A stretch of 64,000 nucleotides of DNA, taken from NCBI GenBank assembly GCA_965221375.1, contig OZ244883.1, forward strand, positions 892,409-956,408, read 5' to 3'. The notes under the pieces were generated by a model. The model searched no databases. It saw only the letters and a list, made by a program, of their open reading frames with translations, and was not told the DNA's origin. This DNA is from an uncultured candidatus Porisulfidus sp. GTDB taxonomy: Bacteria > Pseudomonadota > Gammaproteobacteria > Poriferisulfidales > Poriferisulfidaceae. Of this stretch, positions 2,434-46,783 are shown piece after piece (within the stretch, counting starts at the first letter, position 1; the number at the start of each line of letters is the position of its first letter). Both the position numbers and the translations under genes were made by a program.

Positions 2434-3297
2434 ATGTCCGCCTCGACACTTGAAATCTATTACGGGGACAATCTCCCCATATTGGCGGGCTTGCCGGACG
2501 AATCTTTTGATCTGATCTATATCGATCCTCCTTTCAATACGGGGAGAAAACAGTCGCGTACTCAACTCAAAACCGTACGCGATAAGACCGGAGATCGGCA
2601 GGGTTTTCAGGGGCAACCGTATCGTTCCACGCGCATGGGCACCCAGGCTTTTGAAGATGTGTTTGACGATTACTTGAATTTTTTGGAACCGCGCCTGCGT
2701 GAAGCGTACCGGTTACTGAAAGCGAATGGGTCATTTTTTCTGCATCTTGATTATCGCGAAGTGCATTACTGCAAGGTTTTGCTGGATAAAATTTTTGGGC
2801 GCACCTCATTTATGAACGAAATTATTTGGGTCTACGATTACGGGGCACGCTCGACCAAGAGATGGTCACCGAAGCACGACAATATCCTGTGGTATGCGAA
2901 AGATCCAAAGCATTACACATACTGCTATTCTGAAGTCCCGCGCATTCCGTATATGGCGCCCGGCCTGGTGACGCCGGAGAAAAGAAAACGAGGAAAAACG
3001 GTCACGGATACCTGGTGGCATACGATCGTCAGCCCCACGGGTAAGGAAAAAACCGGCTACCCGACGCAGAAACCGCTGGGGGTTATGGATCGAATCATTC
3101 GTGTGCATTCGAAACCGGGCGATCAGGTGCTGGATTTTTTTGCCGGATCCGGCACAACGGGAGAGGCTGCGTTGCAACTCGACCGCCGAGCAGTTTTGAT
3201 TGACAGCAATGTGGCCGCCATGCGGGTTATGGCCAAGCGTTTGAAGGCGTTTAATCCAGAATGGCACGGTTGGGGTCCGAGTAAAACGAAAAAATAA
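2434..3297 (+). CDS. Site-specific N6A/N4C DNA methyltransferase, beta class (N6_N4_Mtase family), orphan
   Basis: Catalytic DLIYIDPPF N-terminal, YPTQKP and SAM-binding DFFAGSGTT C-terminal (beta order); no adjacent endonuclease. Confidence 0.9.
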   Translation: MSASTLEIYYGDNLPILAGLPDESFDLIYIDPPFNTGRKQSRTQLKTVRDKTGDRQGFQGQPYRSTRMGTQAFEDVFDDYLNFLEPRLREAYRLLKANGSFFLHLDYREVHYCKVLLDKIFGRTSFMNEIIWVYDYGARSTKRWSPKHDNILWYAKDPKHYTYCYSEVPRIPYMAPGLVTPEKRKRGKTVTDTWWHTIVSPTGKEKTGYPTQKPLGVMDRIIRVHSKPGDQVLDFFAGSGTTGEAALQLDRRAVLIDSNVAAMRVMAKRLKAFNPEWHGWGPSKTKK

Positions 3298-3459
3298 GTG
3301 TTGGCAATAAAACCAAATAAATCATAAGCATGTAAAGCTTTATGGGGACAGAGAAAAATTAATTTTCTTGAAATTCAAATATAAGATTGTTTGAGCCGAC
3401 TGGTGGCGTAGAATAAAAAATCACAGGTTTACAAGAGATCGTTATTGCGCGGAACGAAC

Positions 3460-4377
3460 ATGCAAACCGTATTCCCGGCGGTGCATCAGCGCCCAGCAAT
3501 TCCGACCCCCGGCACAATCGATGTGTCACCGATTCCGGCGGTAAACGTGGCATGTGTTCCTCAGCTCAGCCCGCTTCGTTATCCGGGGGGCAAAACATGG
3601 CTTATTCCCCATATCAGATCTTGGCTTAATCAGATCGCGACCAAGCCGCGATTGCTCATCGAACCCTTCGTCGGCGGTGGAATAGTTTCGCTGACCGCAG
3701 TGATGGAAGACCTGGTCGATCGTTGCTTAATGATTGAGATCGATCGAGATGTGGCGGCTTTTTGGCACGCGGCGCTTCAACATGGGCCTGATCTGTGTCA
3801 GAAAATACTGCAGTTTGTACCAACGCATGCCCAGGTTGATGCGATCTCTAGGAGCGAATTGAATCATGTAGTTGAACATGGATTTCGAACGTTAGTGCTG
3901 AACCGGACAAGACGCGGCGGCATACTGGCCCCTGGGGCATCATTTGCAAAAGCAGGTGAGAACGGCAAAGGAATCGCTTCCAGGTGGTACCCGACAACAC
4001 TTGTAGGACGAATTCAAGAAATTGTGCGGTACTCCGACCGTATTGCCTTTCTTGAAGGAGACGGAGCCCAATTCCTGGCTACGTCTCTTTCCAGTGATTC
4101 CACAGATGTGGCTGTCTTTATTGATCCGCCGTACACCGCTGCCGGGAAGAAGGCCGGCAAACGCTTGTATGCGCACAATGCGATTGATCATCAGCATATA
4201 TTTGAATTACTTGCTGACAGTTCGGTTGATTTCCTAATGACTTACGATCAGTCTCCGGAAATTATTGAACTTATCGACATGCATGGCTTTAGCGCGGTCC
4301 AGGTGGTCATGAAAACAACGCACCATGCTCGTATACCGGAACTTGTAATCACCCGTCATCCAGTATTTCAAGCATGA
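3460..4377 (+). CDS. Dam/D12-class DNA adenine methyltransferase (alpha class), orphan
   Basis: SPLRYPGGKTW, EPFVGGG, EID and DPPY motifs in alpha order; ATG at 3460 chosen over TTG at 3445. Confidence 0.87.
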   Translation: MQTVFPAVHQRPAIPTPGTIDVSPIPAVNVACVPQLSPLRYPGGKTWLIPHIRSWLNQIATKPRLLIEPFVGGGIVSLTAVMEDLVDRCLMIEIDRDVAAFWHAALQHGPDLCQKILQFVPTHAQVDAISRSELNHVVEHGFRTLVLNRTRRGGILAPGASFAKAGENGKGIASRWYPTTLVGRIQEIVRYSDRIAFLEGDGAQFLATSLSSDSTDVAVFIDPPYTAAGKKAGKRLYAHNAIDHQHIFELLADSSVDFLMTYDQSPEIIELIDMHGFSAVQVVMKTTHHARIPELVITRHPVFQA

Positions 4378-8935: not shown

Positions 8936-9322
8936 ATGGCCGCTGCAAAAGGAACTCCCGAGCGTAAAGCCGCCGCCAAAAAAGCGGCAAGCGCGAAGAG
9001 TGCATCGGGCCAAGCCAAAGCCTATAGCAGTTTGCGTTTGCGGCTGAAGGCATTTGATCATCGTCTGGTCGATCAGTCGGCTCGTGAAATCGTGGAAACG
9101 GCTCGCCGCACGGGGGCCAAAGTACATGGGCCGATTCCGTTACCGACACGCAAAGAGTTGTATACGGTACTGATTTCCCCGCATGTCGACAAGGATGCCC
9201 GTGATCAGTATGAGGTACGTACGCACAAGCGGGTAATCGATATCGTCAACCCGTCCGAAAAAACCGTCGATGCGCTGATGAAGCTGGATTTGCCGGCCGG
9301 CATCAGTGTGCAGCTGAAATAG
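8936..9322 (+). CDS. rpsJ: 30S ribosomal protein uS10 (NusE) with ~27-aa Ala/Lys-rich N-terminal extension
   Basis: [32 protein letters not shown]. Confidence 0.97.
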
Positions 9323-9973: not shown

Positions 9974-10591
9974 ATGCAAATCGAAGTGCGCGACACCAAA
10001 GCCACCATGACCGTGGCGGACGAATGCTTTGATGCGACGTATCGTGAGGCGCTGGTTCATCAAGTGGTGGTGACGTATGCGCAACGAGGTCGGCAAGGCG
10101 ATGCCGCACAGAAAAATCGCGCGGCAGTTCGCGGCGGCGGCGCCAAACCGTGGCGTCAGAAAGGCACCGGTCGAGCTCGAGCCGGTTCCATCCGCTCGCC
10201 TTTGTGGCGAGGGGGCGGGGTGACTCATCCTTCCAGCAAGCGCATCTATAACCCGAAACTGAACAAAAAAATGTATCGGCAGGCCATGCGCTCAATTTTT
10301 TCCGAATTGTTGCGCCAGGGACGTCTGCATGTCATCGAGGAATTCACGCTGACCGAGCCGAAGACGCGGATCGCGCATGAAAAATTAGCGCAATTGGGAT
10401 TGAAAAGCGCGCTGATTCTGGTCGACAAAATGGATGAGAATGTATTTTTGGCGATACGCAACATGCCGCATTTCGATGCGTGTGAGGCGACCGCCGCCGA
10501 TCCGGTCAACCTGTTGCGCTACGAACAGGTGGTGGCGACTCGGGCGGCTCTGAATCAGATCGAAGCACGTTTGGGAGGGGAAGCATCATGA
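9974..10591 (+). CDS. rplD: 50S ribosomal protein uL4
   Basis: GGGAKPWRQKGTGRARAGSIRSPLWRGGG; ATG at 9974. Confidence 0.98.
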   Translation: MQIEVRDTKATMTVADECFDATYREALVHQVVVTYAQRGRQGDAAQKNRAAVRGGGAKPWRQKGTGRARAGSIRSPLWRGGGVTHPSSKRIYNPKLNKKMYRQAMRSIFSELLRQGRLHVIEEFTLTEPKTRIAHEKLAQLGLKSALILVDKMDENVFLAIRNMPHFDACEATAADPVNLLRYEQVVATRAALNQIEARLGGEAS

Positions 10592-11052
10592 GTTTGCTGG
10601 GCAAGCTCAAGGGCTTGGTTTCTTCCAAATCGAAGCCGGAAGAGAAAAAGCCTGAGGCTCCCAAACCGGCGGCCAAACAGGCGGAACAACCAACCCCTGC
10701 CGCTCCTAAAGCTGCGGAGAAGCCGGTTGCGGCGAAGCCTCCGAAAGCGGCAGTCAAAGAGGTCACGTATTCCGAAGAACGTTTAGCGCAAATTGTGCAG
10801 ATGCCGCATGTGTCGGAGAAATCTGTGCAGCAGGCGCAGAATCAGCAGCACACATTTGTCGTATTGAGAGATGCGACCCGCGGGGAAGTCAAAGCGGCGG
10901 TGGAGCTGATGTTCGAAGTTGAGGTCGAAGAGGTGCGCATGGCCAATGTGCGCGGCAAGCAGGTACGCAACGGCACGCGCTCCAATTGGCGCAAGGCGAT
11001 GGTGCGTCTCGCTCCGGGACAGAACCTTGACACAGGCGAGGTGGGCGCATGA
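10588..11052 (+). CDS. rplW: 50S ribosomal protein uL23 with 59-aa N-terminal extension
   Basis: Core [25 protein letters not shown]; start overlaps rplD stop (ATGA) after SD GGGAGGGG. Confidence 0.96.
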
Positions 11053-26730: not shown

Positions 26731-27207
26731 ATGGCACGAGGAGTCAATCGAGTCACCCTGTTAGGGAATTTGGGTGGAGATCCGGAAATTCGTCAGACAC
26801 AAAGTGGTATCAGTGTCTGCACGATTTCGGTGGCAACCAGTTACAGTCGGCGTGATCGCGATACCAACGAATGGGTCGAAGAGACCGATTGGCATCGTGT
26901 CGTCTTGTTCCGCAATTTGGCGGATGTGGCGGGTCGCTATCTGCGCAAGGGCTCGCAGGTCTATATTGAAGGGAAACTGAAAACGCGGAAATATCAGGAT
27001 TCCGAAGGACACAACCGATATTCCACAGAAGTCGTCGCAGATGAGATGCAAATGCTGGGGTCTCGCGGCGGTGGGGAAATGCCGCCGCCAGCAGCGTCTT
27101 CTTCACCTCCGGCGGCGTCCTCTTCGCCGCCTTCACGACCGGCCAGCGAAGCGCGTAGTCCGACGGCCGGATTGGATGATGATTTTGATGACGATATCCC
27201 GTTTTGA
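26731..27207 (+). CDS. ssb: Single-stranded DNA-binding protein, copy 1
   Basis: [29 protein letters not shown], acidic tip DDDIPF. Confidence 0.97.
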
Positions 27208-27382
27208 AGCAGTTCCGCGGCAAATCGGATAGAATTGAATGAACGGAAACCGCGCATTAGAAAGGGCGCCACAAAGAAGTCGATAAACTTGCGTGTGGTA
27301 CGTGCGTAAAGATTACATAAATGCATAAGGCTTGATGTCGGAGGCGCAGGGATCGCGCAGCATAGGAGCCGGAGGAGAAAAC

Positions 27383-27865
27383 ATGTCCAGAGGAGTAAAT
27401 AAAGTTATTTTGGTCGGCAATTTGGGAGCGGATCCTGAACTTCGTCAAACCAAGAGTGGGTCCAGTGTGTGCAATATGCGCATCGTGACCAACGATTGGC
27501 GGCGTGACAATGTGACGCACGAGCGTGTCGAGACATCCGAATGGCACAACATCGTTCTGTTCAAGCGTTTGGCGGAAGTGGCAGCCAATTACCTGAAAAA
27601 AGGCTCGCAAGTCTATATTGAAGGCAAACTGCGCACCCGAAAATGGCAAGACCAGGAAGGCAACAATCGCTACAGCACCGAGGTGATTGCCGAAGAAATG
27701 CAGATGCTGGGACGTAGCGGCGGTGGCGGCAGCAATTACGAATCGCGTCGTGGCGATGGCAACTATGAGTCGCGCTCGGAGAGCAACTACGAATCAGGAA
27801 ATCGCTACCCGTCCGGCAATCGCCAAAGCGGGGAAAGCGAATACGATGAAGATATCCCATTCTAG
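27383..27865 (+). CDS. ssb: Single-stranded DNA-binding protein, copy 2
   Basis: [30 protein letters not shown], tip DEDIPF; SD GGAGGAG before ATG 27383. Confidence 0.97.
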
Positions 27866-30626: not shown

Positions 30627-31480
30627 TGTCTTTTCTTAAGAAGGATCTGCCGCGGCATTTGCGCTATTGGTTCTGGCAGCGTCAATGGTTTATGCCGCAA
30701 TCACCGGACGAAGCTCGGGCTTTAGTGCTCAGTTTGAGCAGAAACCAACATTTGGATGACAGCTTGTGCAGCGTGCTGGAGAATGCCTTCAACATTTCCC
30801 GGATGCGGGTTTCCGACATCATGATTCCTCGCCCCGATATGATTGTCATCGAGACGGATGCCTCGCGCAAGAGTGTCATTGAGAAAGTGGCAAAACACGG
30901 TCATTCACGTTATCCGGTGATTGACGGTGATCGCAGTTCGGTGGTTGGTGTTTTGTTGGCCAAGGACGTGCTGATGCGTCATCAGGAAACCGGTGCGCGG
31001 GAAGAATTCTCGGTCAAAGACCTGATGTTGCCGCCGCAAACATTTCCGGGCAGCAAACGTCTTTCGGATTTACTCAAGGATTTTCGTACCACGCGCAGTC
31101 ATATGGGCATTGTGGTTAATGAATATAACGAGGCGGCAGGGCTGGTGACGATTGAAGATGTGCTGGAAGAGATTGTCGGTGAAATTGAAGACGAACACGA
31201 TCGGGAAGCGGAAATTAAAAAAATCCGGTTATTGGGAGACGGACGCTACCAGATTGAGCCTACCGTGCCTTTGGAAGATTTCAACGAGCATTTCAATGTA
31301 ACTCTCCAAGCGGGGCGTCGCGCAACGATTGGTGAGTTGGTACTGCAGCGTCTTGGCCATTTCCCGACATTTGAGGAACAGGTCGAAATTGACACGTTCA
31401 AGTTCACGGTTACGCGCCTTTCCGGGCGACGGATTCGCTTGGAAGTGTCGCGTAATTCCCAGGCACATCTGCCTTTGTGA
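30623..31480 (+). CDS. corC: CBS/CorC-domain Mg/Co transport-associated protein
   Basis: DIMIPR, HSRYPV, GLVTIEDVLEEIVGEIEDE; position between ybeY and lnt. Confidence 0.9.
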   Translation: MMSFLKKDLPRHLRYWFWQRQWFMPQSPDEARALVLSLSRNQHLDDSLCSVLENAFNISRMRVSDIMIPRPDMIVIETDASRKSVIEKVAKHGHSRYPVIDGDRSSVVGVLLAKDVLMRHQETGAREEFSVKDLMLPPQTFPGSKRLSDLLKDFRTTRSHMGIVVNEYNEAAGLVTIEDVLEEIVGEIEDEHDREAEIKKIRLLGDGRYQIEPTVPLEDFNEHFNVTLQAGRRATIGELVLQRLGHFPTFEEQVEIDTFKFTVTRLSGRRIRLEVSRNSQAHLPL

Positions 31481-32979
31481 AACTTGCCCACAAATCCAAT
31501 AGCGCATGGCGTGGGCACACGCTAGCGTTGGGTGGTGGGGTCCTCGCATCTTTCGGGTTTGCCCCGTACTCCTGGCGGGTTGCCTTGCTGGCGGGACTCG
31601 TTGCACTGTTTTGGACTTTGCACGCATGTACCCCAAAACAGGCAATGCTGCGGGGCGGCTTGTTTGGTTTGGGGTATTTTGGTTTCGGGGTCTACTGGGT
31701 GTATTACAGCGTGTACGTCTATGCCTACACGCCACTCGGAATCGCAATTTTCCTTACCATGCTGCTGGTGCTGTTTTTAGCACTGTATCCGGCTCTGGCA
31801 TCTTGGTTGGTCGCTCGACTTCTGCCGGTCGGAGCGCTTCGTTTAATTGGTGCAGCAACATTGCTGGCCCTGGCGGAATGGGTGCGGGCTATCCTGTTTA
31901 CCGGGTTCCCATGGGTATTGATTGGGCAGGGGAGTCTGGATAGTATGTGGGCCGGCTATCTGCCGGTTATGGGGGTATATGGGGCTGGCTTGATGTTGCT
32001 GTTGTCCGCCGCCGCATTGGCCGGTTGGCTACGGCAGCCATTTTCACACGGTGTTACCTGGCTCGGGGTGGCAGCACTTATTGCTGGCACAGGGGTAGGT
32101 TTTCGGCAAATTGAATGGAGTACTCCGTTTGGGTCGCCGGTATCTGTTTCCTTGGTGCAGACGAATTTGAACCAGGACCTGCGCTGGCGCCGCGATCATT
32201 TGCCAGAGATTAAGCAAAGTTATCTGGAAATGAGCCAACAAGCGCAACCTGCGCAGTTGATCGTTTGGCCGGAAGCGGCGATTCCGCAATTGCTGCAGCA
32301 GATAGAGCCTTTTTACCAGCAGGTCATGCAGACGCAACCAGCAACAACGACACTGCTGGCAGGAGCGTTTTACAAGGAATCAGAAGATGCCAGGCCTCAG
32401 ACCGGATTGATCAACCTTCGGACGCATCAACGCTATGGCAAACGCCATTTGGTTCCGTTTGGTGAATATACGCCGTTTGAATCATGGTTGCAGCCGCTGT
32501 ACCGACACATGCATATTCGGATGCGGAATCTTCAGGCGTCCAATGATCGTCCCTTGTTGCGTGTTCATGATGTGCCGGTCGGCGTCACCATTTGCTATGA
32601 GTCCATTTATCCGCAAATCACCCGTATGGCTTTTCCGGAAGCGGCGTATCTGGTTAATGTAAGTAATGATGCGTGGTTTGGGGCAACCAGAGCTCCGAGG
32701 CAACATTTGGAGGCCGCCCGTGTGCGTGCTGCAGAAACGGCTCGCGAGATGTTGCGGGCAACCAGCACAGGTATTACGGCGATTTTGGGCGCGGATGGCG
32801 CCGTCGTGTCCGAAGCGCCACAGTTTGAGAGGGCAATTTTGAGAGGTGAAGTGCGGACTCGACGGGGTTTAACCTCCTATGTGCTCTGGGGTAATACATT
32901 TTTCTTTGGACTGATTGGCGCGATACTGATAATGTGTGCGTGGGAGTGCAAAAAGCAACGGAGGGTTCAGCAACTGTAA
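31477..32979 (+). CDS. lnt: Apolipoprotein N-acyltransferase (core copy)
   Basis: GFPW, catalytic WPE, K in YGKRHLVPFGEY, C in ICYE, SNDAWFG. Confidence 0.96.
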   Translation: MKLAHKSNSAWRGHTLALGGGVLASFGFAPYSWRVALLAGLVALFWTLHACTPKQAMLRGGLFGLGYFGFGVYWVYYSVYVYAYTPLGIAIFLTMLLVLFLALYPALASWLVARLLPVGALRLIGAATLLALAEWVRAILFTGFPWVLIGQGSLDSMWAGYLPVMGVYGAGLMLLLSAAALAGWLRQPFSHGVTWLGVAALIAGTGVGFRQIEWSTPFGSPVSVSLVQTNLNQDLRWRRDHLPEIKQSYLEMSQQAQPAQLIVWPEAAIPQLLQQIEPFYQQVMQTQPATTTLLAGAFYKESEDARPQTGLINLRTHQRYGKRHLVPFGEYTPFESWLQPLYRHMHIRMRNLQASNDRPLLRVHDVPVGVTICYESIYPQITRMAFPEAAYLVNVSNDAWFGATRAPRQHLEAARVRAAETAREMLRATSTGITAILGADGAVVSEAPQFERAILRGEVRTRRGLTSYVLWGNTFFFGLIGAILIMCAWECKKQRRVQQL

Positions 32980-33102
32980 ATTCGGTGGGGGTGAATCCGG
33001 ATAAATTCTTCGCACTCCCTAATTTGGGGTAGGGCTTGACTTGTGTTAGAATCCGCGAAACCAATTTTTGCCTTCGCCAGATTTCAATTGCTCGTTCCTC
33101 CG

Positions 33103-34302
33103 ATGCGAAGGATTTCCTCTTTATATTCACTAGCGCGAACCCAGCGCGGCGTTCGGAGGGAATTTTTCGTATTAGTGTTGCTGGCGTGTTGGATGGTGTT
33201 CACTGACGTGTGGGCAACAATTCCTCCACCATCGCCACCACCGCCGGTGACAAACCCGCGGCCGACACCGCCGAGCGTGACGGCCAATGCGGGTCCTGAC
33301 CAAACAGTAACCGGGGGCAGTCTGGTGCAGTTGAGTGGCACGACGGGGGCGGGGATCAGCGTGAGTTGGAGCCAGGTTGCCGGTCCTACAGTGGCACTGA
33401 GCAGTCTCTCATCGTCGGCGCCGACATTCCAGGCGCCGGCCACGAGTTCAAGCACGCAGACGTTGACGTTTCGTTACACTGCCAGCAGAAACTGGAGTTG
33501 GTGCCGCCGCTATGCACCTATTGGTGGTGGCTGTGCTGATACTGTCCACGAAACGGAAACAGCTTCGGATACAGTGGACGTGGTGGTACCTCCACCACCC
33601 TTGATTGCGGAGGCGGGTCCGGCACAAACAGTGGATTCGGGGACATTGGGGACGCTGTCGGGCTCGGCGAAAGGGGGCGAAGGGACGAGAAGTTACGCGT
33701 GGACGCAGACGGAGGGCTTGCCGATGGTGTTGCTTAGCGGTGCGGACCAAGCGAGCGCGAGTTTCACAGCGCCGCTGGTGACGGCACGCACAACGCTGAC
33801 GTTTAAGTTGACGGTTACGGCCGGGAGTGAAATATCAACGGATACCGTTCAAGTCACTGTGGCGGGCCCTGAGGTAGTGAGCGTGGCATTTACCTCTCGT
33901 CCTGCGGCAGGTAACACCTACAGGCTTGGCGAACGGATTCGCTCTCGGGTTGCGTTCGACAGGATTATGACTGTGTCCGGAAGCCCTGTATTGGCGTTGG
34001 AGATTGGCACACAAACCCGTTCGATGACGCATATAGGACTGACCAGAAGTCGAGTGTTGGATTTTGAATATCAGGTACAGGCATCGGATTTGGATACAGA
34101 TGGTATAAGCGTGGGTGAAAACGCGCTTTCCGTGTTGGCAGACACCTCAATAACCGACCATTTCGGTCGTCCGGCCATGCTGAGTTTGTCTGGTCACGAG
34201 ATCGTAAATCAGGCAGCTCGAAAAGTGGATGGGAGCCAGAGTTCGACTTTGCCAACAGGGGGGACTTTGCCTGCCTGCACTATGACCACTCCGGTTCTCT
34301 AG
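33103..34302 (+). CDS. Secreted PKD/Ig-like repeat protein (adhesin/adaptor), paralogue 1
   Basis: Signal peptide ending VWA, Pro-rich linker, two A.AGPDQTV..W.Q..GP.V.L PKD-like repeats, C-terminal Ig-like domain (TY..GE.I...FEYQVQASDLDTDGI). Confidence 0.75.
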   Translation: MRRISSLYSLARTQRGVRREFFVLVLLACWMVFTDVWATIPPPSPPPPVTNPRPTPPSVTANAGPDQTVTGGSLVQLSGTTGAGISVSWSQVAGPTVALSSLSSSAPTFQAPATSSSTQTLTFRYTASRNWSWCRRYAPIGGGCADTVHETETASDTVDVVVPPPPLIAEAGPAQTVDSGTLGTLSGSAKGGEGTRSYAWTQTEGLPMVLLSGADQASASFTAPLVTARTTLTFKLTVTAGSEISTDTVQVTVAGPEVVSVAFTSRPAAGNTYRLGERIRSRVAFDRIMTVSGSPVLALEIGTQTRSMTHIGLTRSRVLDFEYQVQASDLDTDGISVGENALSVLADTSITDHFGRPAMLSLSGHEIVNQAARKVDGSQSSTLPTGGTLPACTMTTPVL

Positions 34303-34432
34303 TTAGTAACTCGTTGTTGTGAAACTGCCCCTACGGAATAAGAAAGAGAAGCGAGGGACACTGGCGGGTAGCGCCGGAGGCTTGGGGCGGGCCGCTAGGC
34401 ACTTACGCCGGATTTCTCCTTTGTGTTTGCCG

Positions 34433-35905
34433 ATGTGTGTTGGTTGCGTTGTTGGAAGAAAATTTTTTGTGTGGGCGGTGCTGGTGGGCTGGATGGGGGT
34501 GGCCGACGTGCAGGCGGGAATTCCAGTGCCAAATCCGCCACCACTAGCGACGTATCCGACTCCGCCACCGCCGAGCATAATGATTGATGCGGGTATGGAT
34601 CAGACGGTGTCCGGAGGGAGCGTGGTGCAGTTGAGTGGCACAACGACAGGAGATAGCGCGAGTTGGAGTTTGAGTTGGAGTCAAACGGCCGGCACGACGG
34701 TGGCGTTGGAAAATCCCTCGTCATCATCGCCAACGTTTCAGGCGCCGGGTGTGAGTTCAAATCCCCAAGTGTTGACGTTTCGCTACGCTGCGAGTAGGGA
34801 TTGGAGTTGGTGCCGTCGTGAGGTGTCTGGTTCCTGCGTTGATACTGTCTACGAAACGTCGACGACTTCGGACATAGTGGATGTGACGGTAAGAGCGAGT
34901 CTGTCGGTAGTGGTGGAATCATATCAGACAGTGGGGTCGGGGGTGTCGGTATCGCTGTCGGGTTTGGCGACGGGAGGCAGCGAAACGAAGAGTTACACAT
35001 GGGTGCAGATGGGAGGATCATCAACGGTTGTACTCAATAATGCGAATCAGGCATCTGCGTATTTCACGGCGCCGACGGTGGCGGCACGTGCGACTCTGTC
35101 GTTCCAGTTGACGGTGACGGCGGGGAGCGAGATGTCGACGGACGTGGTGGACGTGTTGGTGTTGCCGCCGCCCGTCGTTGCGGAGGCGGGTTTGGCACAA
35201 ACGGTGGAATCAGGGGCATCGGTGACATTGTCAGGTTTGACGACATGGGGTGAAGGCTTAAAGAATTACTCGTGGGTGCAGACGGGCGGTTGGCCGACAG
35301 TGGCGCTCAGTGACGCAGACCAGATGTCGGTGAGTTTTATGGCACCGACGGTGGTGGTAATGACGGAGTTGGATTTCGCGCTGACGGTGGCGGACTTGTC
35401 GGGTTCGTCAACGGACACGGTGCGGGTGACGGTGTCGGCGAAGCCACCACAGGTGACGGGCTTATCGCTGGCATCGCGGCCAATATCAGGAGACAGGTAC
35501 AAGCAGGGAGAGACGATTCGAGTGCAGGTATGGCTGTCGGAGTTGGCAGTGGTGTCGGGGTCGCCGCAATTGGCGCTGGAGGTGGGTAATCAGACGCGGA
35601 CGATGAGTTACACAGGATTGGACCGGGCGCGAGTATTGGAGTTTGATTACACGGTGCAGGCATCGGACACGGATATAGATGGAGTCAGCGTTTGGAGCGG
35701 CGCGTTAAGTCTACCGTCAGGAGCATCGTTGATGGGAGAGGCTGGAGGAGTGGTGGGAGTGGACCTGTCGGCTCATGCAATTTTGAACGCTTCGGGACAC
35801 AAAGTGGATGGGGAACAGTCTGCGGTGTCGCCGTTGCCGAATCTGAATGAGTGTTCGAAGGAGGAGGTGAGTGTATTGAATCTTCCGGATCAGGGGAGCG
35901 ACTGA
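34433..35905 (+). CDS. Secreted PKD/Ig-like repeat protein (adhesin/adaptor), paralogue 2
   Basis: Signal peptide ending VQA, three PKD-like repeats plus same C-terminal Ig-like domain; stop overlaps RHS start (TGATG); start codon uncertain. Confidence 0.75.
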   Translation: MCVGCVVGRKFFVWAVLVGWMGVADVQAGIPVPNPPPLATYPTPPPPSIMIDAGMDQTVSGGSVVQLSGTTTGDSASWSLSWSQTAGTTVALENPSSSSPTFQAPGVSSNPQVLTFRYAASRDWSWCRREVSGSCVDTVYETSTTSDIVDVTVRASLSVVVESYQTVGSGVSVSLSGLATGGSETKSYTWVQMGGSSTVVLNNANQASAYFTAPTVAARATLSFQLTVTAGSEMSTDVVDVLVLPPPVVAEAGLAQTVESGASVTLSGLTTWGEGLKNYSWVQTGGWPTVALSDADQMSVSFMAPTVVVMTELDFALTVADLSGSSTDTVRVTVSAKPPQVTGLSLASRPISGDRYKQGETIRVQVWLSELAVVSGSPQLALEVGNQTRTMSYTGLDRARVLEFDYTVQASDTDIDGVSVWSGALSLPSGASLMGEAGGVVGVDLSAHAILNASGHKVDGEQSAVSPLPNLNECSKEEVSVLNLPDQGSD

Positions 35906-38900
35906 TGGGGTCGCGCTCGTTGGTTTTTCTGTTCCAAGCGGTAGCGGGCGTCTTGCTGCTGGGGGCGGAGACGGTATCCGCGGCGGCAGTATCGGGAACG
36001 TTGGATGGTGCGTTGTCGGTAGATCAGACGGGTTCGGCGGGGTATACGGTTCCAGTTGAGGTTCCGCCGGGGACGGCGGAGATGCAACCGTCGTTGTCGC
36101 TGTCGTACAACAGCAATGGTGGCAACGGGCTACTGGGTCAGGGTTGGACGCTGCAGGGCTTGTCCACGATCAGCCGTTGCCCGAAGACGAAGGCGCAGGA
36201 CAATGTGCGGGGGACGATCAATTACGATGCGGACGACCGGTTCTGCCTGGACGGGAGCCGCCTGATTGCGGTGCACGGGACATATGGGTCGAGTGGCGCG
36301 GAATATCGGACCGAGCTTGACAGTTTCGCGAAGGTGATTTCGATGGGCACAGTGGAGGGTGGTCCTCAGTATTGGGTGGTGTGGACAAAGTCGGGCCAGA
36401 AGATGGAGTATGGAAGAACGACATCATCGCGAGTAGAAGCGACGGGCCAATCGGCCGTGCGGCAGTGGAAGTTGAATCGGGTGGAAGATACGCTCGGGAA
36501 CTATCTGACGGTGACGTATATCGAGGCTGCGACGGACGGTTTTGCGTATCCGAGCCGAATCGACTACAGCGGTCACCAACAGGGGAACGTGAACCAGGCG
36601 CCGTATGCATCGGTACGTTTCAGTTACGAAGACCGACACGACGACATTGTGCTGATGCATGGTGGGCATAGGGTCAGCGTGGACAAGCGCTTAACCCATG
36701 CCAAGACCTACATTGGCGAGACGCTGGTCTCGGACTACCGACTGAGTTATTCTTCTACTGGTTTGCCTTACCCTTCGAGGATCGTTGGCATCCAGCGATG
36801 TGACGGGATGGGGGACTGCCTGCCGGGTGCCGATATGACGTGGAACAGTTTGGGCACGGGCACGATGAGTTCGGCGGAGCAGTTACGTTACATTGGTCAA
36901 ATCGACAGTTTTGTGGTCACGGGTGATTTTTCCGGCACCGGGCGGGAGCGTCTCTGGTTTACGAGGGCGCCTTCGGGGTACGCCGGATACGAACCGCTGG
37001 TTGGCGACTACGATGGGGATGGGGATTCGGACATTGCTTGGGTGAAGGCATCAAGCGCGGGGTTCTACTTTTATCTGAACGGAAGTTCGAGGAAAGTGTC
37101 AAGCGGATACTACGACGGCTATACCCCCCGGACAGGTGATTTCAACGGAGATGGTCGCACCGATGTGATCTGGACAAAGAAGAAAAGATATAGTTTCGGG
37201 TGGTGGGGTTTTACATACGTGTCCACGAATGTTTATATCAAAGTGGCACTGAGCAACGGTTCAGGTATCGGAGCCCCAATCCATATGGTGCGGGGCTTCA
37301 GTGGAGAACCCAACAGTTACGAAACCCAAGTCGGAGATTTCAATGGCGACGGTTTGTCCGATCTCGTTTGGAGCCGGGCCTACAATGGCGGCATTCAGAC
37401 CTACGTCAGTTTGGGCGACGGCTCAGGGGGACTTGGCGCACCAACGTTTACTGCAGTGAAGGCCACCGGAGACCACACGGGCTATAAGGCCGCGGTTCTA
37501 GATTTCAATGGCGATGGGCTTTTGGACATGGTCTGGACGAAAAGCCAAAACGGGGGTTTGCGCGCCTATGCGGCGATGGGGAAAGGTGACGGTAGTTTTG
37601 GATCGGTGCAGTATAGCGCACCTCGCACATCGGGAAATTACAGTGGCTATGAGTCGTTAATCGGAGACTTCAACGGAGATGGGTTAATGGATTTGGCGTG
37701 GGCCACGAAATCTAATTCCAGCCGGCATGTCAGCGTGTCTTTTGGGGACGGAACAGGTTTTTTTCAAGCGGCACATGATAGTTCAATTGGTTCGCTTCGC
37801 AGTCAAAGAGAGGACATTTTGAATGTCAATCATACCCAATCGCCGGTAGCCATCGACTTTGACGGAGACGGGGTTTCCGAAATCTTCTGGAGGTCTTGGA
37901 TCAGGTACAGATATACGTATACATCTACATATCAAACTCCTTTTAGTTGTCCGGGGGTGTGGATATCGCAATATACCTGCAGGGCAGAATTTTCCTTTAA
38001 AAGAAATACTTGGGCGGTTCATTATGCAACCAGCACAGTTCCGAAGGGCTATGGCCGGATTGCCACGATTGATACGGGCAATGGGACGACGTTTAATATG
38101 GAATATGAGTCTCTATCGGCGAGTTCCGTGAATATTTATACCAAGGACAGTGACGACGACCTGTGCAGTTTGCCGTGCCGCGATATTCAGATGCCTCTCC
38201 AAGTGGTCAAGGAGGTCATAAAGGACCATGGTGATGATCTGACGGAGCAGATCAGTTATCGATATGGAGGCGCAAAAACGGACCTCAATGGGCGGGGATT
38301 CAAGGGTTTCCGATGGATGGAGTTGACAGACGTACGGACTGGCATCGTTTCCCGTACCGAATATCAGCAAGATTTCCCTTATATCGGACAAGTCAAATCA
38401 AGCAGCCGCTACGTTGATACCTCCCCTCAGACCCTTCTGCATACGGAGGCCAACACCTGGGCAAGCCTTTCTCTGAACGACGGTAAGACGCAGTTTCCAT
38501 ATATTTCATCAAGTGCGGCGGCAACCTACGAGATGGAGGCTGGGCCGGGTAACAGTGCGGTGACGACAGTGACGAACGCGAGTAGCTACGACAGTTACGG
38601 CAACCCGATTGAGATCACGGTGACGACAACGGGAGCGGGAGGCACGTACCGGAAGGTGACGACGAACACTTACACGAATACGATGGTGAACTGGCGTCTG
38701 GGCCGTCTGGCGTGTGCGCAGGTGCGTTCGGAGACACCGACGGTGGCGGTGACACGGACTTCGGGGTTCGCCTACAGTTCGGTGACGGGACTGTTGACAA
38801 AGGAAGTGGTTGAACCGAGTCCGGGAGTGATCAGCGGGTGCGTGTCGGCATTGTCGGCAGCGGAGTTGAAGGACATATCCTTGATCACGACGTACCAGCA

Positions 38901-41900
38901 CGATGCTTACGGGAATCGCCGACAGTCGACGATTCGTGGAGGTGGGATCACCTCGCGTTCGAGTGCGACGGTGTGGGGCGAGCGGGCCAGTTGCGGAGCG
39001 GTGACGGCAAATGGACGTTTTCCCGTATCGGTGAGCAACGCGCTGGGCCATGTGGCAGAGAGTTGGTATTCGGGGGCGTTTGGAAAGTTGCTGCAGAGTC
39101 GGGACGCGAACGGGCTGGAGTTGCGTCAGGAGTATGACGGTTTTGGGCGCCTGATTCGTGTGGTGCATGCAGACGGTCGACAGGAGGTGGTGCAGTATCG
39201 GGACTGCACGGACATGGGCTTGTCTTGTCCCCCTCAAGCGGTGCGAGCAATTTTGACGGACCGCACGGGAGCGGCGTCGGTAATCAGTTATGTGGACCGG
39301 CGAGGCTTGGTAGTGCGCACGGAGACGGAAGGTTTTGATGGGACGGCAGTGTATCAGGACACGGAGTATGACGCGGCGAGCCAAGCCGTGCGGAAGTCGC
39401 GGGCGTATTACGCGGGAGAGGCGGCGCAGTGGAGTCAATACACTTATGACAAGTTGGGCCGGGTGAAGAGCGAGACGTTGCCGAATGGGAGTGTGACGAC
39501 GACGAATTATGACGGATTGGTAGGAGGTTGGATTCAGCAGCGGGTGAGCGTGCAGGTCTCAAGTACAGCGACGGCACGGACGACGACGCGAGAGTACGAC
39601 GCGCGGGGTATGACGGTACGGATGATTGATCCGCTGGGGAGCGAGACGCGTTTCGAGTATACGGAGTATGGCAAGCAGAAAAAGGTGACGGCGGCGAACG
39701 GTTCGGTGACGGAGCGGAGTTTCGATTTGCGGGGGCGGCTGCTGTCGGAGACGGATCCGGACCGAGGGATGCGGACGTACCGCTACAACGCACTGGACGA
39801 ATTGGTATCGAAGACGAATGCGCGGGGTCAGACGACCACATTTGTGTATGACTTGCTGGGTCGATTGGTGCGGCGATCGGAGGCGGAAGGCACGACGGTG
39901 TGGGTGTATGACGCCTCAAGCACGGGCAAAGGTCGCCTGGCGCAGGTGTCGGGTCCGGATGGCTATTTGCGCACGCATGCGTATGACGCCTATGGGCGCC
40001 CGTTGAGAGAGACAGCGACAATTGGAAGGGAGCGTTTTACGACGGCCCGAACGTATGACGCGGCAGGTCGGGTGGCGACGACAACTTATCCAGGGAGTGG
40101 GCTGGTGGTGCGTCATGAGTATACGGCGACGGGCTACTTGGAGAAAGTTCGAAAGGATGCTTCGTGCGGGACGGTGTATTGGACGGCGGAAAAGGTGGAT
40201 GCGGAAGGTCGGGTAGAGGAGTCGCTACTAGGCAATGGAGTAGGCACAACACGAGTGTTCGATCCGCTGACGGGTTTGGTTCAGAGCATCCAGTCGGGTT
40301 TGGGCGAGACCTCGGGGGTGCAGGATTTGGGGTATGTGTTCGATGCGTACGGAAACTTGACCATGCGGGAAGATTTCGCGCAGGATGTGTATGAGAGTTT
40401 CACGTATGACACGCTGAACCGGTTGACAGGTTCGGAGCTGAAGAACGCGGGGACGGAGGCGTTATTAGCGAACAAAAATTATCGCTACGATGCGGTGGGG
40501 AATCTGATAAACAAGTCGGATGTGGGGGCGGCAGACTATGTTTATGGGGCGGGCGATGCGGGTCCGCATGCGGTAACGTCGGCGGGGGACTATGTCTATA
40601 TTTACGATGCCAGCGGAAATATGGTGTCGGGAGCCGGACGGACGCTGACATGGACGAGCTTCCAGAAGCCGCGAACGATAGCGAAAGGGTCGACCGTGAG
40701 CACGTTTGAGTATGGGCCGGACCGGGGACGGGTAAGGCAGGTGAAAGTGAAGGGCGCGGTGACGGAGATTCTCACTTATGTGGGCGGGCTGTATGAGCGG
40801 GTGGAAAAGACGGGTTCGGCGATGGAGCATGTGCACTACGTGTTCGCAGGAGGGGCGCGGGTTGCAATAGAGACGGCGAGCGAGTCGGCGGGCTCAAACG
40901 TGAAGTTGCGCTATCTGCACATGGACCACTTAGGTTCAGTGGATGTGGTAACAAACGAGTTGGGAGAGGTTGTGGAACGGCTGTCTTTTGGAGCGTTTGG
41001 AGAACGGCGGGTTGCGCAGGGCACGGCCACTTGGCAGGACTTGGCACTGGCATTATCTTCAGCGGAAACGCGGCGGGGTTTCACTGGCCACGAGCAACTG
41101 GACGACTTTGGTTTGGTGCACATGAACGGGCGAGTGTATGACCCGCACTTGGGGCGTTTCCTCAGTGCGGATCCATTTGTACAGTTTGCCCTTTCGTCGC
41201 AGGGCTACAACCGCTATACCTACGCCGGCAACAACCCGTTGTCGTATACCGACCCCAGCGGATATTTCATTAAGTCGCTGTTCCGCAAAGTCGCGAGGTT
41301 GGTCAAGAAGGTTTTCAAAAGTTCGGTGTTTCGAACCGTCGCTGCGGTGGCGTTTGCTGTTTATGGGGGGCCAGCTGGAGCAAAGTTGCTAGGCATGGCG
41401 GAAAGTGCTTTCGTGGAAGGTGCGATCGGAGGGTTCGGGGCAGGATTAATTTCAAGCGGAGGCGATATCAAGTCGGCCTTTGTTGGAGGATTGAGTGGGG
41501 GCGCGTTGGGATTTGTTGGAGGCAGTGAATTATTTGAGCTGGCATCAAGTCGCGCAGTCGCGCATGGTGCCGTTGGTGGGGTTTCCTCAGAGTTGATGGG
41601 TGGCAAGTTCGGGGAAGGATTCTTGTCGGCAGGGTTCTCAAGTCTGGCGGCTCCCCAGATAGACAAATTTAATTTCGACGAAAAGGCAGCCCGTATGATA
41701 ACGACGGCTGTTGTCGGTGGTACAGCGTCTGTACTCGCTGGCGGGAAATTCGCCAATGGGGCAAAAACCGCTGCCTATCTGCAATTGTTTGTGGAAATTG
41801 CAAACTTTTATGCAGTTTATACGGGCACAACCGCAGATTGGCGCCCAGGGAAAAATTACGAAAAAACTAAATTTAAAGTTGTGGACGAGAGGAATGGCTT

Positions 41901-42249
41901 TTACATGCAGGATTTCAGAGACCTTCCAGCCGATGCTAACACCGTCGGTAGAAATCTAGATATAGGAGACGCGTTTTGTGTCCAAGGTGACGCTTGCAGT
42001 AGATTTCTGAATGAGATCCCGGGCATCAATGCGACCTCCAAATTCCATGACCGTATCATGAGTTCTGCTGAATACGGGGCAAAATATGGTGCTATTACTG
42101 GTGTTCAGGCAACATTGCTTGATGGCCAGGTTTTCAATTTTGCAACCATGCTTCCCAGTGCCGCAATCGCTTACAGTGCGATAGCGGGAGAAAATATAAG
42201 AGGGTGGCATCGCAGCGCTCTGGCTTGGCATCATGTTCGGGATAAATAA
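35905..42249 (+). CDS. Secreted SpvB/FG-GAP/TcdB-midN/RHS polymorphic toxin (Tc B-C fusion-like), 2114 aa
   Basis: Signal peptide MGSRSLVFL..TVSA; SpvB-type PSLSLSYNSNGGNGLLGQGW..RFCLDG; 7 DFNGDG repeats; GRGFKGF; many YD repeats; RHS core RGFTGHEQLD..MNGRVYDP..RFLSADP..NPLSYTDPSG. Confidence 0.92.
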   Translation: MGSRSLVFLFQAVAGVLLLGAETVSAAAVSGTLDGALSVDQTGSAGYTVPVEVPPGTAEMQPSLSLSYNSNGGNGLLGQGWTLQGLSTISRCPKTKAQDNVRGTINYDADDRFCLDGSRLIAVHGTYGSSGAEYRTELDSFAKVISMGTVEGGPQYWVVWTKSGQKMEYGRTTSSRVEATGQSAVRQWKLNRVEDTLGNYLTVTYIEAATDGFAYPSRIDYSGHQQGNVNQAPYASVRFSYEDRHDDIVLMHGGHRVSVDKRLTHAKTYIGETLVSDYRLSYSSTGLPYPSRIVGIQRCDGMGDCLPGADMTWNSLGTGTMSSAEQLRYIGQIDSFVVTGDFSGTGRERLWFTRAPSGYAGYEPLVGDYDGDGDSDIAWVKASSAGFYFYLNGSSRKVSSGYYDGYTPRTGDFNGDGRTDVIWTKKKRYSFGWWGFTYVSTNVYIKVALSNGSGIGAPIHMVRGFSGEPNSYETQVGDFNGDGLSDLVWSRAYNGGIQTYVSLGDGSGGLGAPTFTAVKATGDHTGYKAAVLDFNGDGLLDMVWTKSQNGGLRAYAAMGKGDGSFGSVQYSAPRTSGNYSGYESLIGDFNGDGLMDLAWATKSNSSRHVSVSFGDGTGFFQAAHDSSIGSLRSQREDILNVNHTQSPVAIDFDGDGVSEIFWRSWIRYRYTYTSTYQTPFSCPGVWISQYTCRAEFSFKRNTWAVHYATSTVPKGYGRIATIDTGNGTTFNMEYESLSASSVNIYTKDSDDDLCSLPCRDIQMPLQVVKEVIKDHGDDLTEQISYRYGGAKTDLNGRGFKGFRWMELTDVRTGIVSRTEYQQDFPYIGQVKSSSRYVDTSPQTLLHTEANTWASLSLNDGKTQFPYISSSAAATYEMEAGPGNSAVTTVTNASSYDSYGNPIEITVTTTGAGGTYRKVTTNTYTNTMVNWRLGRLACAQVRSETPTVAVTRTSGFAYSSVTGLLTKEVVEPSPGVISGCVSALSAAELKDISLITTYQHDAYGNRRQSTIRGGGITSRSSATVWGERASCGAVTANGRFPVSVSNALGHVAESWYSGAFGKLLQSRDANGLELRQEYDGFGRLIRVVHADGRQEVVQYRDCTDMGLSCPPQAVRAILTDRTGAASVISYVDRRGLVVRTETEGFDGTAVYQDTEYDAASQAVRKSRAYYAGEAAQWSQYTYDKLGRVKSETLPNGSVTTTNYDGLVGGWIQQRVSVQVSSTATARTTTREYDARGMTVRMIDPLGSETRFEYTEYGKQKKVTAANGSVTERSFDLRGRLLSETDPDRGMRTYRYNALDELVSKTNARGQTTTFVYDLLGRLVRRSEAEGTTVWVYDASSTGKGRLAQVSGPDGYLRTHAYDAYGRPLRETATIGRERFTTARTYDAAGRVATTTYPGSGLVVRHEYTATGYLEKVRKDASCGTVYWTAEKVDAEGRVEESLLGNGVGTTRVFDPLTGLVQSIQSGLGETSGVQDLGYVFDAYGNLTMREDFAQDVYESFTYDTLNRLTGSELKNAGTEALLANKNYRYDAVGNLINKSDVGAADYVYGAGDAGPHAVTSAGDYVYIYDASGNMVSGAGRTLTWTSFQKPRTIAKGSTVSTFEYGPDRGRVRQVKVKGAVTEILTYVGGLYERVEKTGSAMEHVHYVFAGGARVAIETASESAGSNVKLRYLHMDHLGSVDVVTNELGEVVERLSFGAFGERRVAQGTATWQDLALALSSAETRRGFTGHEQLDDFGLVHMNGRVYDPHLGRFLSADPFVQFALSSQGYNRYTYAGNNPLSYTDPSGYFIKSLFRKVARLVKKVFKSSVFRTVAAVAFAVYGGPAGAKLLGMAESAFVEGAIGGFGAGLISSGGDIKSAFVGGLSGGALGFVGGSELFELASSRAVAHGAVGGVSSELMGGKFGEGFLSAGFSSLAAPQIDKFNFDEKAARMITTAVVGGTASVLAGGKFANGAKTAAYLQLFVEIANFYAVYTGTTADWRPGKNYEKTKFKVVDERNGFYMQDFRDLPADANTVGRNLDIGDAFCVQGDACSRFLNEIPGINATSKFHDRIMSSAEYGAKYGAITGVQATLLDGQVFNFATMLPSAAIAYSAIAGENIRGWHRSALAWHHVRDK
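36920..37890 (+). repeat. Seven FG-GAP/VCBS repeats (integrin-like beta-propeller) inside the RHS gene
   Basis: GDFSGTG, GDYDGDG, GDFNGDG x3, LDFNGDG, IDFDGDG each followed by D/E-hydrophobic-hydrophobic-W (first repeat degenerate). Confidence 0.85.
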
Positions 42250-42256
42250 TAGGCTC

Positions 42257-42604: not shown

Positions 42605-42613
42605 GTAGTTCCC

Positions 42614-46319: not shown

Positions 46320-46357
46320 GAGATTGACACCAAGGGAATTCCCCATAGGATAGAGGC

Positions 46358-46774: not shown

Positions 46775-46783
46775 GTACGACAG

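Follow-up and report, generated by a model that had tools for sequence, protein, structure and literature searches.

An N-terminally extended ribosomal protein uL23 with a conserved amphipathic tip in the Candidatus Porisulfidus clade: a candidate membrane anchor at the tunnel exit

The rplW locus and its start site

We analyzed a stretch of 64,000 nucleotides (the window) from an uncultured Candidatus Porisulfidus species (assembly GCA_965221375.1, contig OZ244883.1, positions 892,409 to 956,408 of the forward strand), in which the gene rplW encodes a ribosomal protein uL23 with an N-terminal extension. The gene lies on the plus strand in a str/S10/spc/alpha ribosomal cluster (rpsG, fusA, tuf, rpsJ, rplC, rplD, rplW, rplB ... 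secY, rpoA, rplQ). The S10 operon has the order rpsJ-rplC-rplD-rplW-rplB-rpsS, which is also the order in Escherichia coli, and rplW overlaps its neighbors by ATGA at both ends; the overlap of rplD and rplW has the same arrangement in E. coli. Table 1 lists the features of rplW together with other features of the window. The Rfam scan showed no leader or other RNA near rplW and a single tRNA in the whole window.

An earlier reading of this DNA from its letters (the original prediction) had placed a 59-residue extension of uL23 at positions 10588-10764 and had described it as an amphipathic helix followed by a disordered linker, possibly a tether between ribosome and membrane. The match to the Pfam family Ribosomal_L23 (PF00276), at 81.7 bits and thus above the cutoff of 30.8, was confined to residues 69-148, and the Pfam scan found no domain on residues 1-60. 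Solved bacterial uL23 chains (81-116 aa) matched at E = 6e-19, with residues 62-148 of the query aligned to residues 3-94 of the chain. Since residue 60 corresponds to Met1 of E. coli uL23, positions 10588-10764 are indeed a 59-residue extension, exactly codons 1-59 of the 154-aa open reading frame (ORF). The core was predicted by AlphaFold2 (AF2) with a local confidence score (pLDDT) above 90 throughout. Judged by these matches, the rplW product is a bona fide uL23.

We then examined the possible start codons. Between the upstream stop codon (10483-10485) and the core, in-frame starts are limited to codons 1 (ATG), 3 (TTG) and 10 (TTG). The next one is GTG at codon 70, which lies within the conserved core, codons 61-69 being the conserved N-terminal segment of uL23. 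Thus codons 11 to 69 hold no in-frame start, in agreement with the original prediction that a start at the usual position is lacking, and at least 50 extra uL23 residues are therefore translated. The codon usage of rplW and its GC content by codon position are like those of the adjacent ribosomal-protein genes.

The start itself is conserved. In all 14 loci of the Porisulfidus clade defined below, GGGAGG or GGGGGG stands 9 nt upstream of the rplW start (6 nt in L003) and the start overlaps the rplD stop, so that the Shine-Dalgarno (SD) site and the ATGA overlap, on which the predicted start had rested, are both present in the window and kept across the clade. Every indel among the 14 rplW orthologues is in frame. 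Among these orthologues the tip had a pooled Nei-Gojobori ratio of nonsynonymous to synonymous differences (pN/pS) of 0.49, compared with 0.56 in the linker and 0.34 in the core. The conserved SD site and coupling, the in-frame indels and the pN/pS values below 1 indicate that the 59-aa extension is translated and under purifying selection, and the comparison of loci confirmed it as genuine.

It was cautioned by Tsurumaki et al. that N-terminal additions may stem from start-codon choice (RNA 28:1041, 2022; PMC9297842), and some uL23 entries of the candidate phyla radiation (CPR) are over-called upstream of the N-terminal motif described below (P0253, P0276, P0324). For the window, an annotation artefact, in which the extension is untranslated and the true rplW start lies downstream, is hardly credible. 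The lack of an in-frame start from codon 10 to codon 70, the conserved uL23 segment already at codons 61-69, and the SD site, coupling and frame kept in 14 loci effectively refute it. An antisense ORF at 10506..10766 was dismissed as a by-product of the GC-rich low-complexity sequence.

Table 1. Features of rplW and other features of the window, with positions counted from the first nucleotide of the window
Feature	Positions	Strand	Basis or remark
rplW, uL23 ORF, 154 aa	10588..11052	+	N-terminal extension, codons 1-59 (10588..10764)
SD site GGGAGGGG for rplW, within the rplD 3' end	10573..10580	+	7 nt upstream of ATG
ATGA, rplW start overlapping the rplD stop (10589-10591), translational coupling	10588..10591	+	Sequence, clade loci
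Tip, residues 1-16, cationic amphipathic, resembling a membrane-targeting sequence	10588..10635	+	Helical wheel, conserved register in the clade
Linker, residues 17-59, Ala/Lys/Pro/Glu/Val-rich, low-complexity, predicted disordered	10636..10764	+	AF2 pLDDT, clade indels
Canonical uL23 core, residues 60-154, and stop overlapping the rplB start at 11049	10765..11052	+	Pfam, PDB, AF2
S76-E77-K78, counterpart of E. coli S17-E18-K19	10813..10821	+	Invariant in clade alignment A1
Intra-tunnel beta-hairpin G123..W134, shortened	10954..10989	+	Alignment with clade loci, non-clade loci and E. coli
rpsJ, uS10	8936..9322	+	N-terminal extension at 8936..9019
Two DNA methyltransferase genes	2434..3297, 3445..4377		N6_N4_Mtase; D12-class N6-adenine
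Tandem ssb paralogues	26731..27207, 27332..27865		Acidic D(D/E)DIPF tail in both
ORF of about 285 aa	30623..31480		Starts MMSFLKKDLPRH
First lnt	31477..32979	+	LNT_N and CN_hydrolase
Two PKD-domain proteins	33043..34302, 34319..35905		
2132-aa toxin-like protein	35851..42249		SpvB, TcdB middle/N, FG-GAP, RHS-repeat domains
Small ORF	42233..42604		No Pfam match
Second lnt	42733..44256	-	LNT_N and CN_hydrolase
Low-GC block	about 42000..56500		GC about 0.48-0.50
Type II secretion cluster	pseudopilins from 46358; secretin 54190..56463		Within the low-GC block

Distribution of the extension

A search of 5.8 billion proteins returned 24 more uL23 proteins of 143-160 aa that aligned over their full length at 43-65% identity. 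We then surveyed genomes, one per GTDB species, with an alignment-profile scan, which gave 80 uL23 loci; a scan of the same genome contigs with the single protein had found no relatives. Thirteen of the loci carry the extension, and they come from Candidatus Porisulfidus or from sponge-metagenome Gammaproteobacteria or 'Chromatiales'. Together with the window they form the clade set of 14. A uL23 ORF was obtained from 66 of the other 67 loci, which belong to Thiohalocapsa, Thiocapsa, Thiospirillum, Sedimenticolaceae, Lysobacterales, Porticoccaceae and others.

The extension was found in 14/14 clade loci and in 0/66 of the others, nearly all of which are Gammaproteobacteria. The 66 non-clade proteins are 97-104 aa long and start with MNQERLMKVLL or similar; longer 'ORFs' at non-clade loci of high-GC genomes were rejected as read-through in the rplD frame. 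Among these loci the extension is confined to one clade, in which it measures about 50-66 aa. Clade chromosomes are about 1.35-2.0 Mb, and several of the loci are on complete ones of 1.57-2.02 Mb; OY764335.1, OZ251520.1, OY288106.1, OZ220694.1, OZ243950.1, OZ220480.1 and OZ241993.1 are complete Porisulfidus chromosomes. Porisulfidus is a known sponge symbiont (PMC12988363). Within this survey, the sponge-associated Candidatus Porisulfidus clade has the uL23 extension as a synapomorphy.

uS10 also has an N-terminal extension that is specific to the clade (Table 1). It has about 28 Lys/Ala-rich residues, its consensus in the relatives is MAAPKKKARQPKPETAVSEAV...KKGKGRYSS, and it has no amphipathic tip. 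It is present at every Porisulfidus-clade locus and at none of the other gammaproteobacterial loci with a readable uS10 N terminus.

Tip-less Lys/Ala/Pro-rich N-terminal extensions of uL23, 30-70 aa long, occur in other bacterial lineages (P0062, P0070, P0073, P0074, P0080, P0082, P0087 and P0125, as well as P0088, P0089 and P0200, and P0095, P0141 and P0145). The distinctive part of the Porisulfidus extension is therefore its tip and not the Lys/Ala/Pro-rich tail.

The uL23 core and its tunnel hairpin

The closest matches of the core outside the clade are from Povalibacter, Steroidobacter and Thiohalocapsa at about 50-55% identity, which bears out the gammaproteobacterial core that had been claimed. 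uL23 is the common docking platform for trigger factor (TF), the signal recognition particle (SRP), SecA and SecY at the tunnel exit (PMC8082313). In E. coli, the surface motif SEK with Glu18 is the docking site of TF (Kramer 2002, as reported in PMC8082313). The motif is intact in the window, about 17 residues past the junction of extension and core.

The intra-tunnel hairpin is altered. It has 12 residues in 14/14 clade loci, compared with 16-17 residues in the 67 aligned non-clade loci and in E. coli (G65-W80). The deletion of 4 residues takes out the tip equivalent to E. coli G71. This tip is the nascent-chain sensor within the tunnel that SRP and SecA contact (PMC8082313; bioRxiv 10.1101/2024.08.16.608256). 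The shortening is perfectly co-distributed with the N-terminal extension (14/14 in the clade, 0/67 elsewhere), which suggests that the exit and targeting interface of the Porisulfidus-clade ribosome, as read from these alignments, has been remodelled as a whole. The proteins uL29, uL24 and uL22 of the window are of ordinary length.

It was considered that, when a ribosome is idle, the tip may fold back into its exit vestibule and act in cis as a plug or hibernation element, like the N-termini of YqjD and ElaB or the tail of mL45. The basic YqjD and ElaB N-termini touch uL22, uL23, uL24 and uL29, and at the uL23 hairpin ElaB reaches into the tunnel (bioRxiv 10.1101/2024.08.16.608256); a leash of 45 aa would be long enough for this, and the shortened hairpin would widen the vestibule. 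Such a constitutive plug, however, would compete with every nascent chain, the tunnel hairpin is full-length in the extended uL23 proteins of the CPR, and no sequence likeness to the YqjD N-termini was seen, which makes a plug very unlikely.

Conservation and structure of the tip and the linker

The tip of the clade has the consensus MSMFGKIKGLFKGKPK, with MSFLKKIKGLFGSKPK, MKNPFSWLGRLFGRRPRP, MKLLTWLKALTGRKP, MSVWGKFKDFFRRERKK, MKLGEKIRNLFHKGKP and MSAKSWFKSIFRGKK as divergent forms. Positions 3, 4, 7, 10 and 11 are hydrophobic throughout the clade and form a 120-degree arc on the helical wheel, which is bordered by Lys6 and Lys8; the helix would stop at GKPK. Among lineages that are at most 50% identical, the hydrophobic and basic pattern is retained through synonymous and conservative changes, and the synonymous codon variation in the tip indicates selection at the protein level.

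Since pN/pS left tip and linker unseparated, we substituted a composition-controlled conservation test, in which nine lineages differing at the level of about 50% were compared and shuffles within each region served as the compositional baseline. Over this baseline, the tip had an excess BLOSUM62 score of +1.90 per column, compared with +0.70 in the linker and +3.57 in the core. Conservation is therefore higher in the first 15 residues than in the linker, a comparison that the original prediction had set for itself, and the score of the linker is inflated because the aligner is free in gap placement there. The tip is nearly free of indels.

The linker is 31-51 aa long in the clade, with numerous in-frame indels and a net charge from -2 to +8. 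It consists of Ala (23%), Lys (18%), Pro (17%), Glu (13%, with a range of 13-16%) and Val (11%). Tandem Repeats Finder found a single 12-nt duplication in the linker and no clear repeat array. With the clade alignment, AF2 gave pLDDT below 50 at residues 12-46, which supports the disordered linker of the original prediction. Since the length is roughly held but the sequence and the sign of the charge drift, a leash fits the linker better than a tail that binds ribosomal RNA (rRNA).

The predicted amphipathic helix stood in part. The cationic amphipathic pattern is conserved on the helical wheel, but AF2 gave no stable helix: the pLDDT of the tip was 53-59, with a helix of three residues when the clade alignment was used and none with an alignment of 54 CPR sequences. 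This low confidence neither supports nor excludes folding of the tip upon binding.

Comparison of the tip with membrane-targeting sequences

We compared windows of 11 residues by hydrophobic moment (muH), mean hydrophobicity (mean H), Wimley-White interfacial free energy (dG) and charge. Five membrane-targeting sequences (MTSs) of MinE, MinD, FtsY (two sites) and SecA, taken from the E. coli K-12 genome, served as references. Table 2 shows that the parameters of the clade tips overlap the range of these verified sequences. By muH, the tip of the window ranks 2nd among the 53 gene N-termini of the window.

Table 2. Amphipathicity, hydrophobicity, interfacial free energy and charge of 11-residue windows
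Peptides	muH	Mean H	dG (kcal/mol)	Charge
Five E. coli references	0.31-0.68	0.27-0.74	-4.3 to +0.4	+1 to +4
Eight clade tips	0.53-0.73	0.26-0.75	-3.4 to +2.9	+1 to +4
Window tip (residues 2-12)	0.55	0.54	+0.09	+2
Linker windows	about 0.2	-0.14 to +0.09	+6 to +8	+1 to +3

The likeness extends to individual residues. E. coli FtsY starts with MAKEKKRGFFSWLGFGQKE, followed by an acidic disordered A-domain, and has the junction helix GFFARLKRSLLKTK. The clade tips MKNPFSWLGRLFG (P0008) and MKNPFAWLGRWFG (L003) resemble the FtsY segment GFFSWLGFG, the local likeness being at FSWLG. SecA starts with MLIKLLTKVFGSRNDR, and the tip of the window resembles its segment MLIKLLTKVFGS (LLxKxxG). MinE has MALLDFFLSRKK, and MinD ends in ...KKGFLKRLFGG. 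Residues 2-12 of MinE form an N-terminal amphipathic membrane helix, in which L3E, L4E, F6E and F7E impair membrane binding (PMC5473585). FtsY binds the membrane through its variable, flexible A-domain and the junction MTS, and the N terminus of SecA contacts the ribosome, SecYEG and lipid (PMC8082313).

The window also holds an ORF of about 285 aa whose start (Table 1) is like the uL23 tip of P0002 (MSFLKKIKGLF), probably by coincidence.

Recurrence in CPR/Patescibacteria

When 1.84 billion representatives were searched exhaustively with a uL23 profile, 10,031 matched, among them long uL23 proteins with quite different cores that start with MGILDRFKK, MGLFDRLTK, MAFFDRFKH, MSVFDFLKKRK or similar. 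With a profile of these long proteins, 3,016 proteins were found at E < 1e-10. The best 120 of these are all 122-165 aa long, and the named ones among them belong to Candidatus Parcubacteria or Patescibacteria.

We collected 128 CPR uL23 proteins (122-165 aa) that share the start M[GAS][LI][FL]D[IFR]FKKKK, followed by a Lys/Glu/Pro-rich spacer; their median extension is about 49 aa. After M at position 1, the residues are G (50), A (34) and S (15) at position 2, L (73), I (31) and F (16) at position 3, F (56) and L (47) at position 4, D (95) at position 5, I (43), F (30) and R (27) at position 6 and F (96) at position 7, and positions 8-12 are mostly K. In P0253, P0276 and P0324 additional residues precede the motif, which comes directly after an internal Met, and the motif thus marks the true N terminus. 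The CPR tip is nearly identical to the MTS of MinE, matching it at positions 3, 4, 5, 6 and 7 and in the basic tail.

It was reported that CPR uL23 is larger and has an amino-terminal region in a proportion of cases; that paper, the source of the caution above about start codons, gives no motif or function for the region (PMC9297842). In the literature that we searched, this one sentence on an existing amino-terminal region is all that covers it.

In the CPR-type proteins as in those of Porisulfidus, a tip of hydrophobic and basic residues is followed by a spacer of about 50 aa, charged and of low complexity, and by the uL23 core, and the hosts of both have reduced genomes and are host-associated. 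On the other hand, the core of Porisulfidus is gammaproteobacterial and that of the CPR belongs to another lineage, the tip motif is MSMFGKIKGLFKGK in Porisulfidus and MGLFDFFKKKKK in the CPR, the spacer is rich in A/K/P/E in the former and in K/E/P in the latter, and the hairpin is shortened in Porisulfidus only. Since the core is gammaproteobacterial and the tip and spacer differ in detail, the two designs are independent. We therefore rejected the uL23 of the window as a CPR-type member and regard it as an analogue. A third tipped lineage, P0120 (MVVKKFLKKVVKK with an Ala/Pro spacer), was not counted: it consists of near-identical sequences only, on contigs of 3-4 Mb, and its closest relatives carry other N-termini, so that it gives no independent support. 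The recurrence in the CPR, the clade-wide occurrence and the hairpin deletion that accompanies the extension all go beyond the original prediction.

The independent origin of the same architecture in the CPR argues for a selected function. It also bears on the possibility of a neutral low-complexity expansion, in which slippage and drift in a small symbiont population produced the extension and its first codons were kept only for initiation and coupling. The low-complexity composition, the 12-nt duplication, the tail on uS10 and the similar pN/pS of tip and linker would all fit such an expansion. We consider it improbable, since the hydrophobic and basic pattern of the tip is kept across lineages at most 50% identical, the extension stays within about 50-66 aa in the clade, and the CPR arrived at the same design with fixed hydrophobic positions.

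Alternatively, the extension may bind rRNA or neighboring ribosomal proteins as a structural patch that stabilizes the large subunit and possibly offsets changes that came with a reduced genome. Both carrier lineages have reduced genomes. In CPR ribosomes, rRNA segments at the surface and some proteins are missing, and uS10 and uL23 are among the enlarged proteins (PMC9297842); uS10 is extended in the Porisulfidus clade as well. Plain K/A/P-rich uL23 N-terminal extensions occur in other bacteria, and lineage-specific extensions and the N terminus of eukaryotic uL23 provide a precedent. However, what is conserved is a hydrophobic face and no basic patch, the spacer varies in length, sequence and sign of charge (-2 to +8) and contains 13-16% Glu, AF2 predicted no docking and had low confidence, and uL29, uL24 and uL22 have their normal length. 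A structural patch is thus quite unlikely in our judgment.

Other features of the window

Between prs and the str operon are two DNA methyltransferase genes, beside which no obvious restriction endonuclease was identified. Two ssb paralogues stand in tandem. Two paralogues of Lnt (apolipoprotein N-acyltransferase), each with the domains LNT_N and CN_hydrolase, lie within 11 kb of each other.

The 2132-aa protein resembles Tc-toxin B/C or Rhs polymorphic toxins. It is preceded by the two PKD-domain proteins and followed by a small ORF, possibly an immunity gene.

The GC content drops from about 0.55-0.58 to about 0.48-0.50 across the low-GC block, which contains the second lnt, a protein with an AhpC/redoxin domain and the type II secretion cluster (Table 1). 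The block may be a horizontally acquired island.

A candidate lipid anchor at the tunnel exit

Taken together, the position, pattern and conservation of the tip suggest that it may serve as a weak, reversible lipid anchor held on a flexible leash at the tunnel exit. We favor this reading tentatively and would rate its prospects slightly below even. The tip (about 11-13 residues) would be unstructured in solution and, once at the anionic cytoplasmic membrane, would fold into about three turns of amphipathic helix. Each 50S subunit would gain a weak and reversible affinity for lipid, and polysomes would gain avidity. Because uL23 rims the tunnel exit, binding of the tip would point the exit port at the membrane, and ribosomes would become locally concentrated around SecYEG and YidC. 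The spacer of about 45 residues would act as the leash, allowing the tip to reach the bilayer while the surface of uL23 for TF, SRP, SecA and SecY stays usable. Co-translational insertion might benefit, as we infer from this geometry.

Several observations weigh against a lipid anchor. AF2 predicted no stable tip helix in either lineage, and pN/pS is similar for tip (0.49) and linker (0.56). The amphipathicity of the window tip is marginal against its own shuffles (p about 0.06); this tip is rated the least hydrophobic in the clade, has no aromatic residue and has a dG of +0.09 kcal/mol. Since the window sequence alone is marginal, the weight of the argument lies on the conservation in the clade. 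A single short MTS is usually weak, and MinD requires dimerization. Since uS10 of the same clade also has a K/A-rich tail, part of the uL23 extension may reflect a general growth of low-complexity sequence. Hydrophobic-basic peptides are typical for binding to TF and DnaK, and they could also bind rRNA or the tunnel vestibule.

The last point leads to the possibility that the tip binds a factor at the exit site, either as a pseudo-substrate or anchor for TF, DnaK or SRP or as a docking site for SecA, YidC or SecY, with the spacer as an entropic bristle. TF and DnaK prefer peptides rich in aromatic, aliphatic and basic residues, in which the tip is rich. About 17 residues separate the extension from the invariant SEK motif on which TF docks, on the platform that TF, SRP and SecA have in common (PMC8082313), and the altered hairpin of the clade, the part contacted by SRP and SecA, suggests a changed interplay of factors. 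On the other hand, the near-identity of the CPR tip to the MTS of MinE and the likeness to the lipid-binding segments of FtsY and SecA point to lipid, no partner can be named, and a chaperone pseudo-substrate tethered at the docking site should inhibit. We consider binding of a factor unlikely.

Returning to the lipid anchor, the wider claim is that ribosomes of Porisulfidus and, independently, of many CPR/Patescibacteria carry a MinE/FtsY-like lipid anchor on uL23 as a cis-acting tether. This is possible but doubtful on present sequence comparisons. If it is true, the tunnel exit would be intrinsically drawn to the cytoplasmic membrane, and this design would have arisen at least twice, among small-celled lineages whose genomes are reduced. 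The anchor could aid translation close to the membrane with less reliance on SRP and FtsY in such host-associated cells; in Porisulfidus, the anchor would be coupled to the loss of the hairpin tip, the nascent-chain sensor for SRP and SecA.

In the current view, bacterial ribosomes reach the membrane solely by factors in trans: SRP/FtsY, SecA, the nascent chain, and stress tethers such as YqjD. In the literature that we searched, we found no description of a ribosomal protein with a membrane-targeting peptide. With a membrane-targeting peptide on uL23, translation would be biased toward the membrane in a new and genetically simple manner. Such a peptide would bear on co-translational insertion in CPR and symbionts and on the debated targeting of ribosomes that is independent of the nascent chain, and it would offer a compact module of 16 or 59 residues for engineering the localization of ribosomes. 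Even with a target other than lipid, a conserved leashed peptide beside the docking site of TF and SRP would be a new regulatory element of the exit platform.

Comparison with known systems

The original prediction had likened the extension to that of eukaryotic uL23, and this comparison is the weakest part of the earlier interpretation. Eukaryotic uL23 (RPL23A/L25) has a total length similar to that of the window protein and a basic, low-complexity N-terminal tail. Its tail, however, has no amphipathic tip, is associated with nuclear import and rRNA contacts, and has no detectable similarity to the extension in the window. In the clade profile A1, the alignment with solved uL23 chains begins no earlier than position 57, and the extension alone gave no meaningful match among solved chains (best E = 0.13, to FliL). 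We therefore rejected the eukaryotic-type extension as a homologue, and the likeness is further weakened by the tip-less K/A/P tails of other bacteria.

The E. coli MTSs are closer in form. Like the uL23 tip, they are terminal, about 11 residues long, amphipathic in periodicity and positive, with Gly and Ser on the polar face, but they sit on division and targeting factors and not on a ribosomal protein. Bacterial MTSs are a heterogeneous class that the tip resembles but in which its membership cannot be asserted, and the tip and the MTSs are analogues rather than a homologous family, the lipid binding of the tip being a reading of its sequence. The A-domain of E. coli FtsY has the same order as the uL23 module: an MTS, a variable disordered spacer and a domain for the exit site and translocon. 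In FtsY the spacer has about 180 aa and a strongly acidic composition, whereas that of uL23 is about 45 aa, rich in Ala, Lys, Pro and Glu and near neutral to basic. The two proteins differ further in that FtsY cycles as a soluble GTPase and uL23 is a ribosomal subunit in stoichiometric amount.

The C-tail-anchored proteins YqjD, ElaB and YgaM of E. coli connect the exit region (uL22, uL23, uL24 and uL29) to the inner membrane, as is proposed for the tip. These are transmembrane proteins in their own right, which are induced by stress and inactivate ribosomes; in contrast, no transmembrane segment was evident in the uL23 sequence, and its candidate anchor would be peripheral, in cis and on every ribosome. 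Mitoribosomal mL45/Mba1 (and Mrx15) likewise hold the exit site (semi-)permanently at the membrane for co-translational insertion (PMC6233058), but mL45/Mba1 does not extend uL23; it is an extra, unrelated protein or a membrane receptor, in organelles whose products are almost all membrane proteins. A tether of the YqjD/ElaB/YgaM or mL45/Mba1 type was therefore rejected for the uL23 extension, since the candidate anchor lies within uL23 itself; if the anchor is real, it would be a bacterial counterpart of mL45/Mba1 acting in cis. As a lineage-specific extension of a ribosomal protein, the uL23 extension is of a known kind, and its distinctive cap is new.

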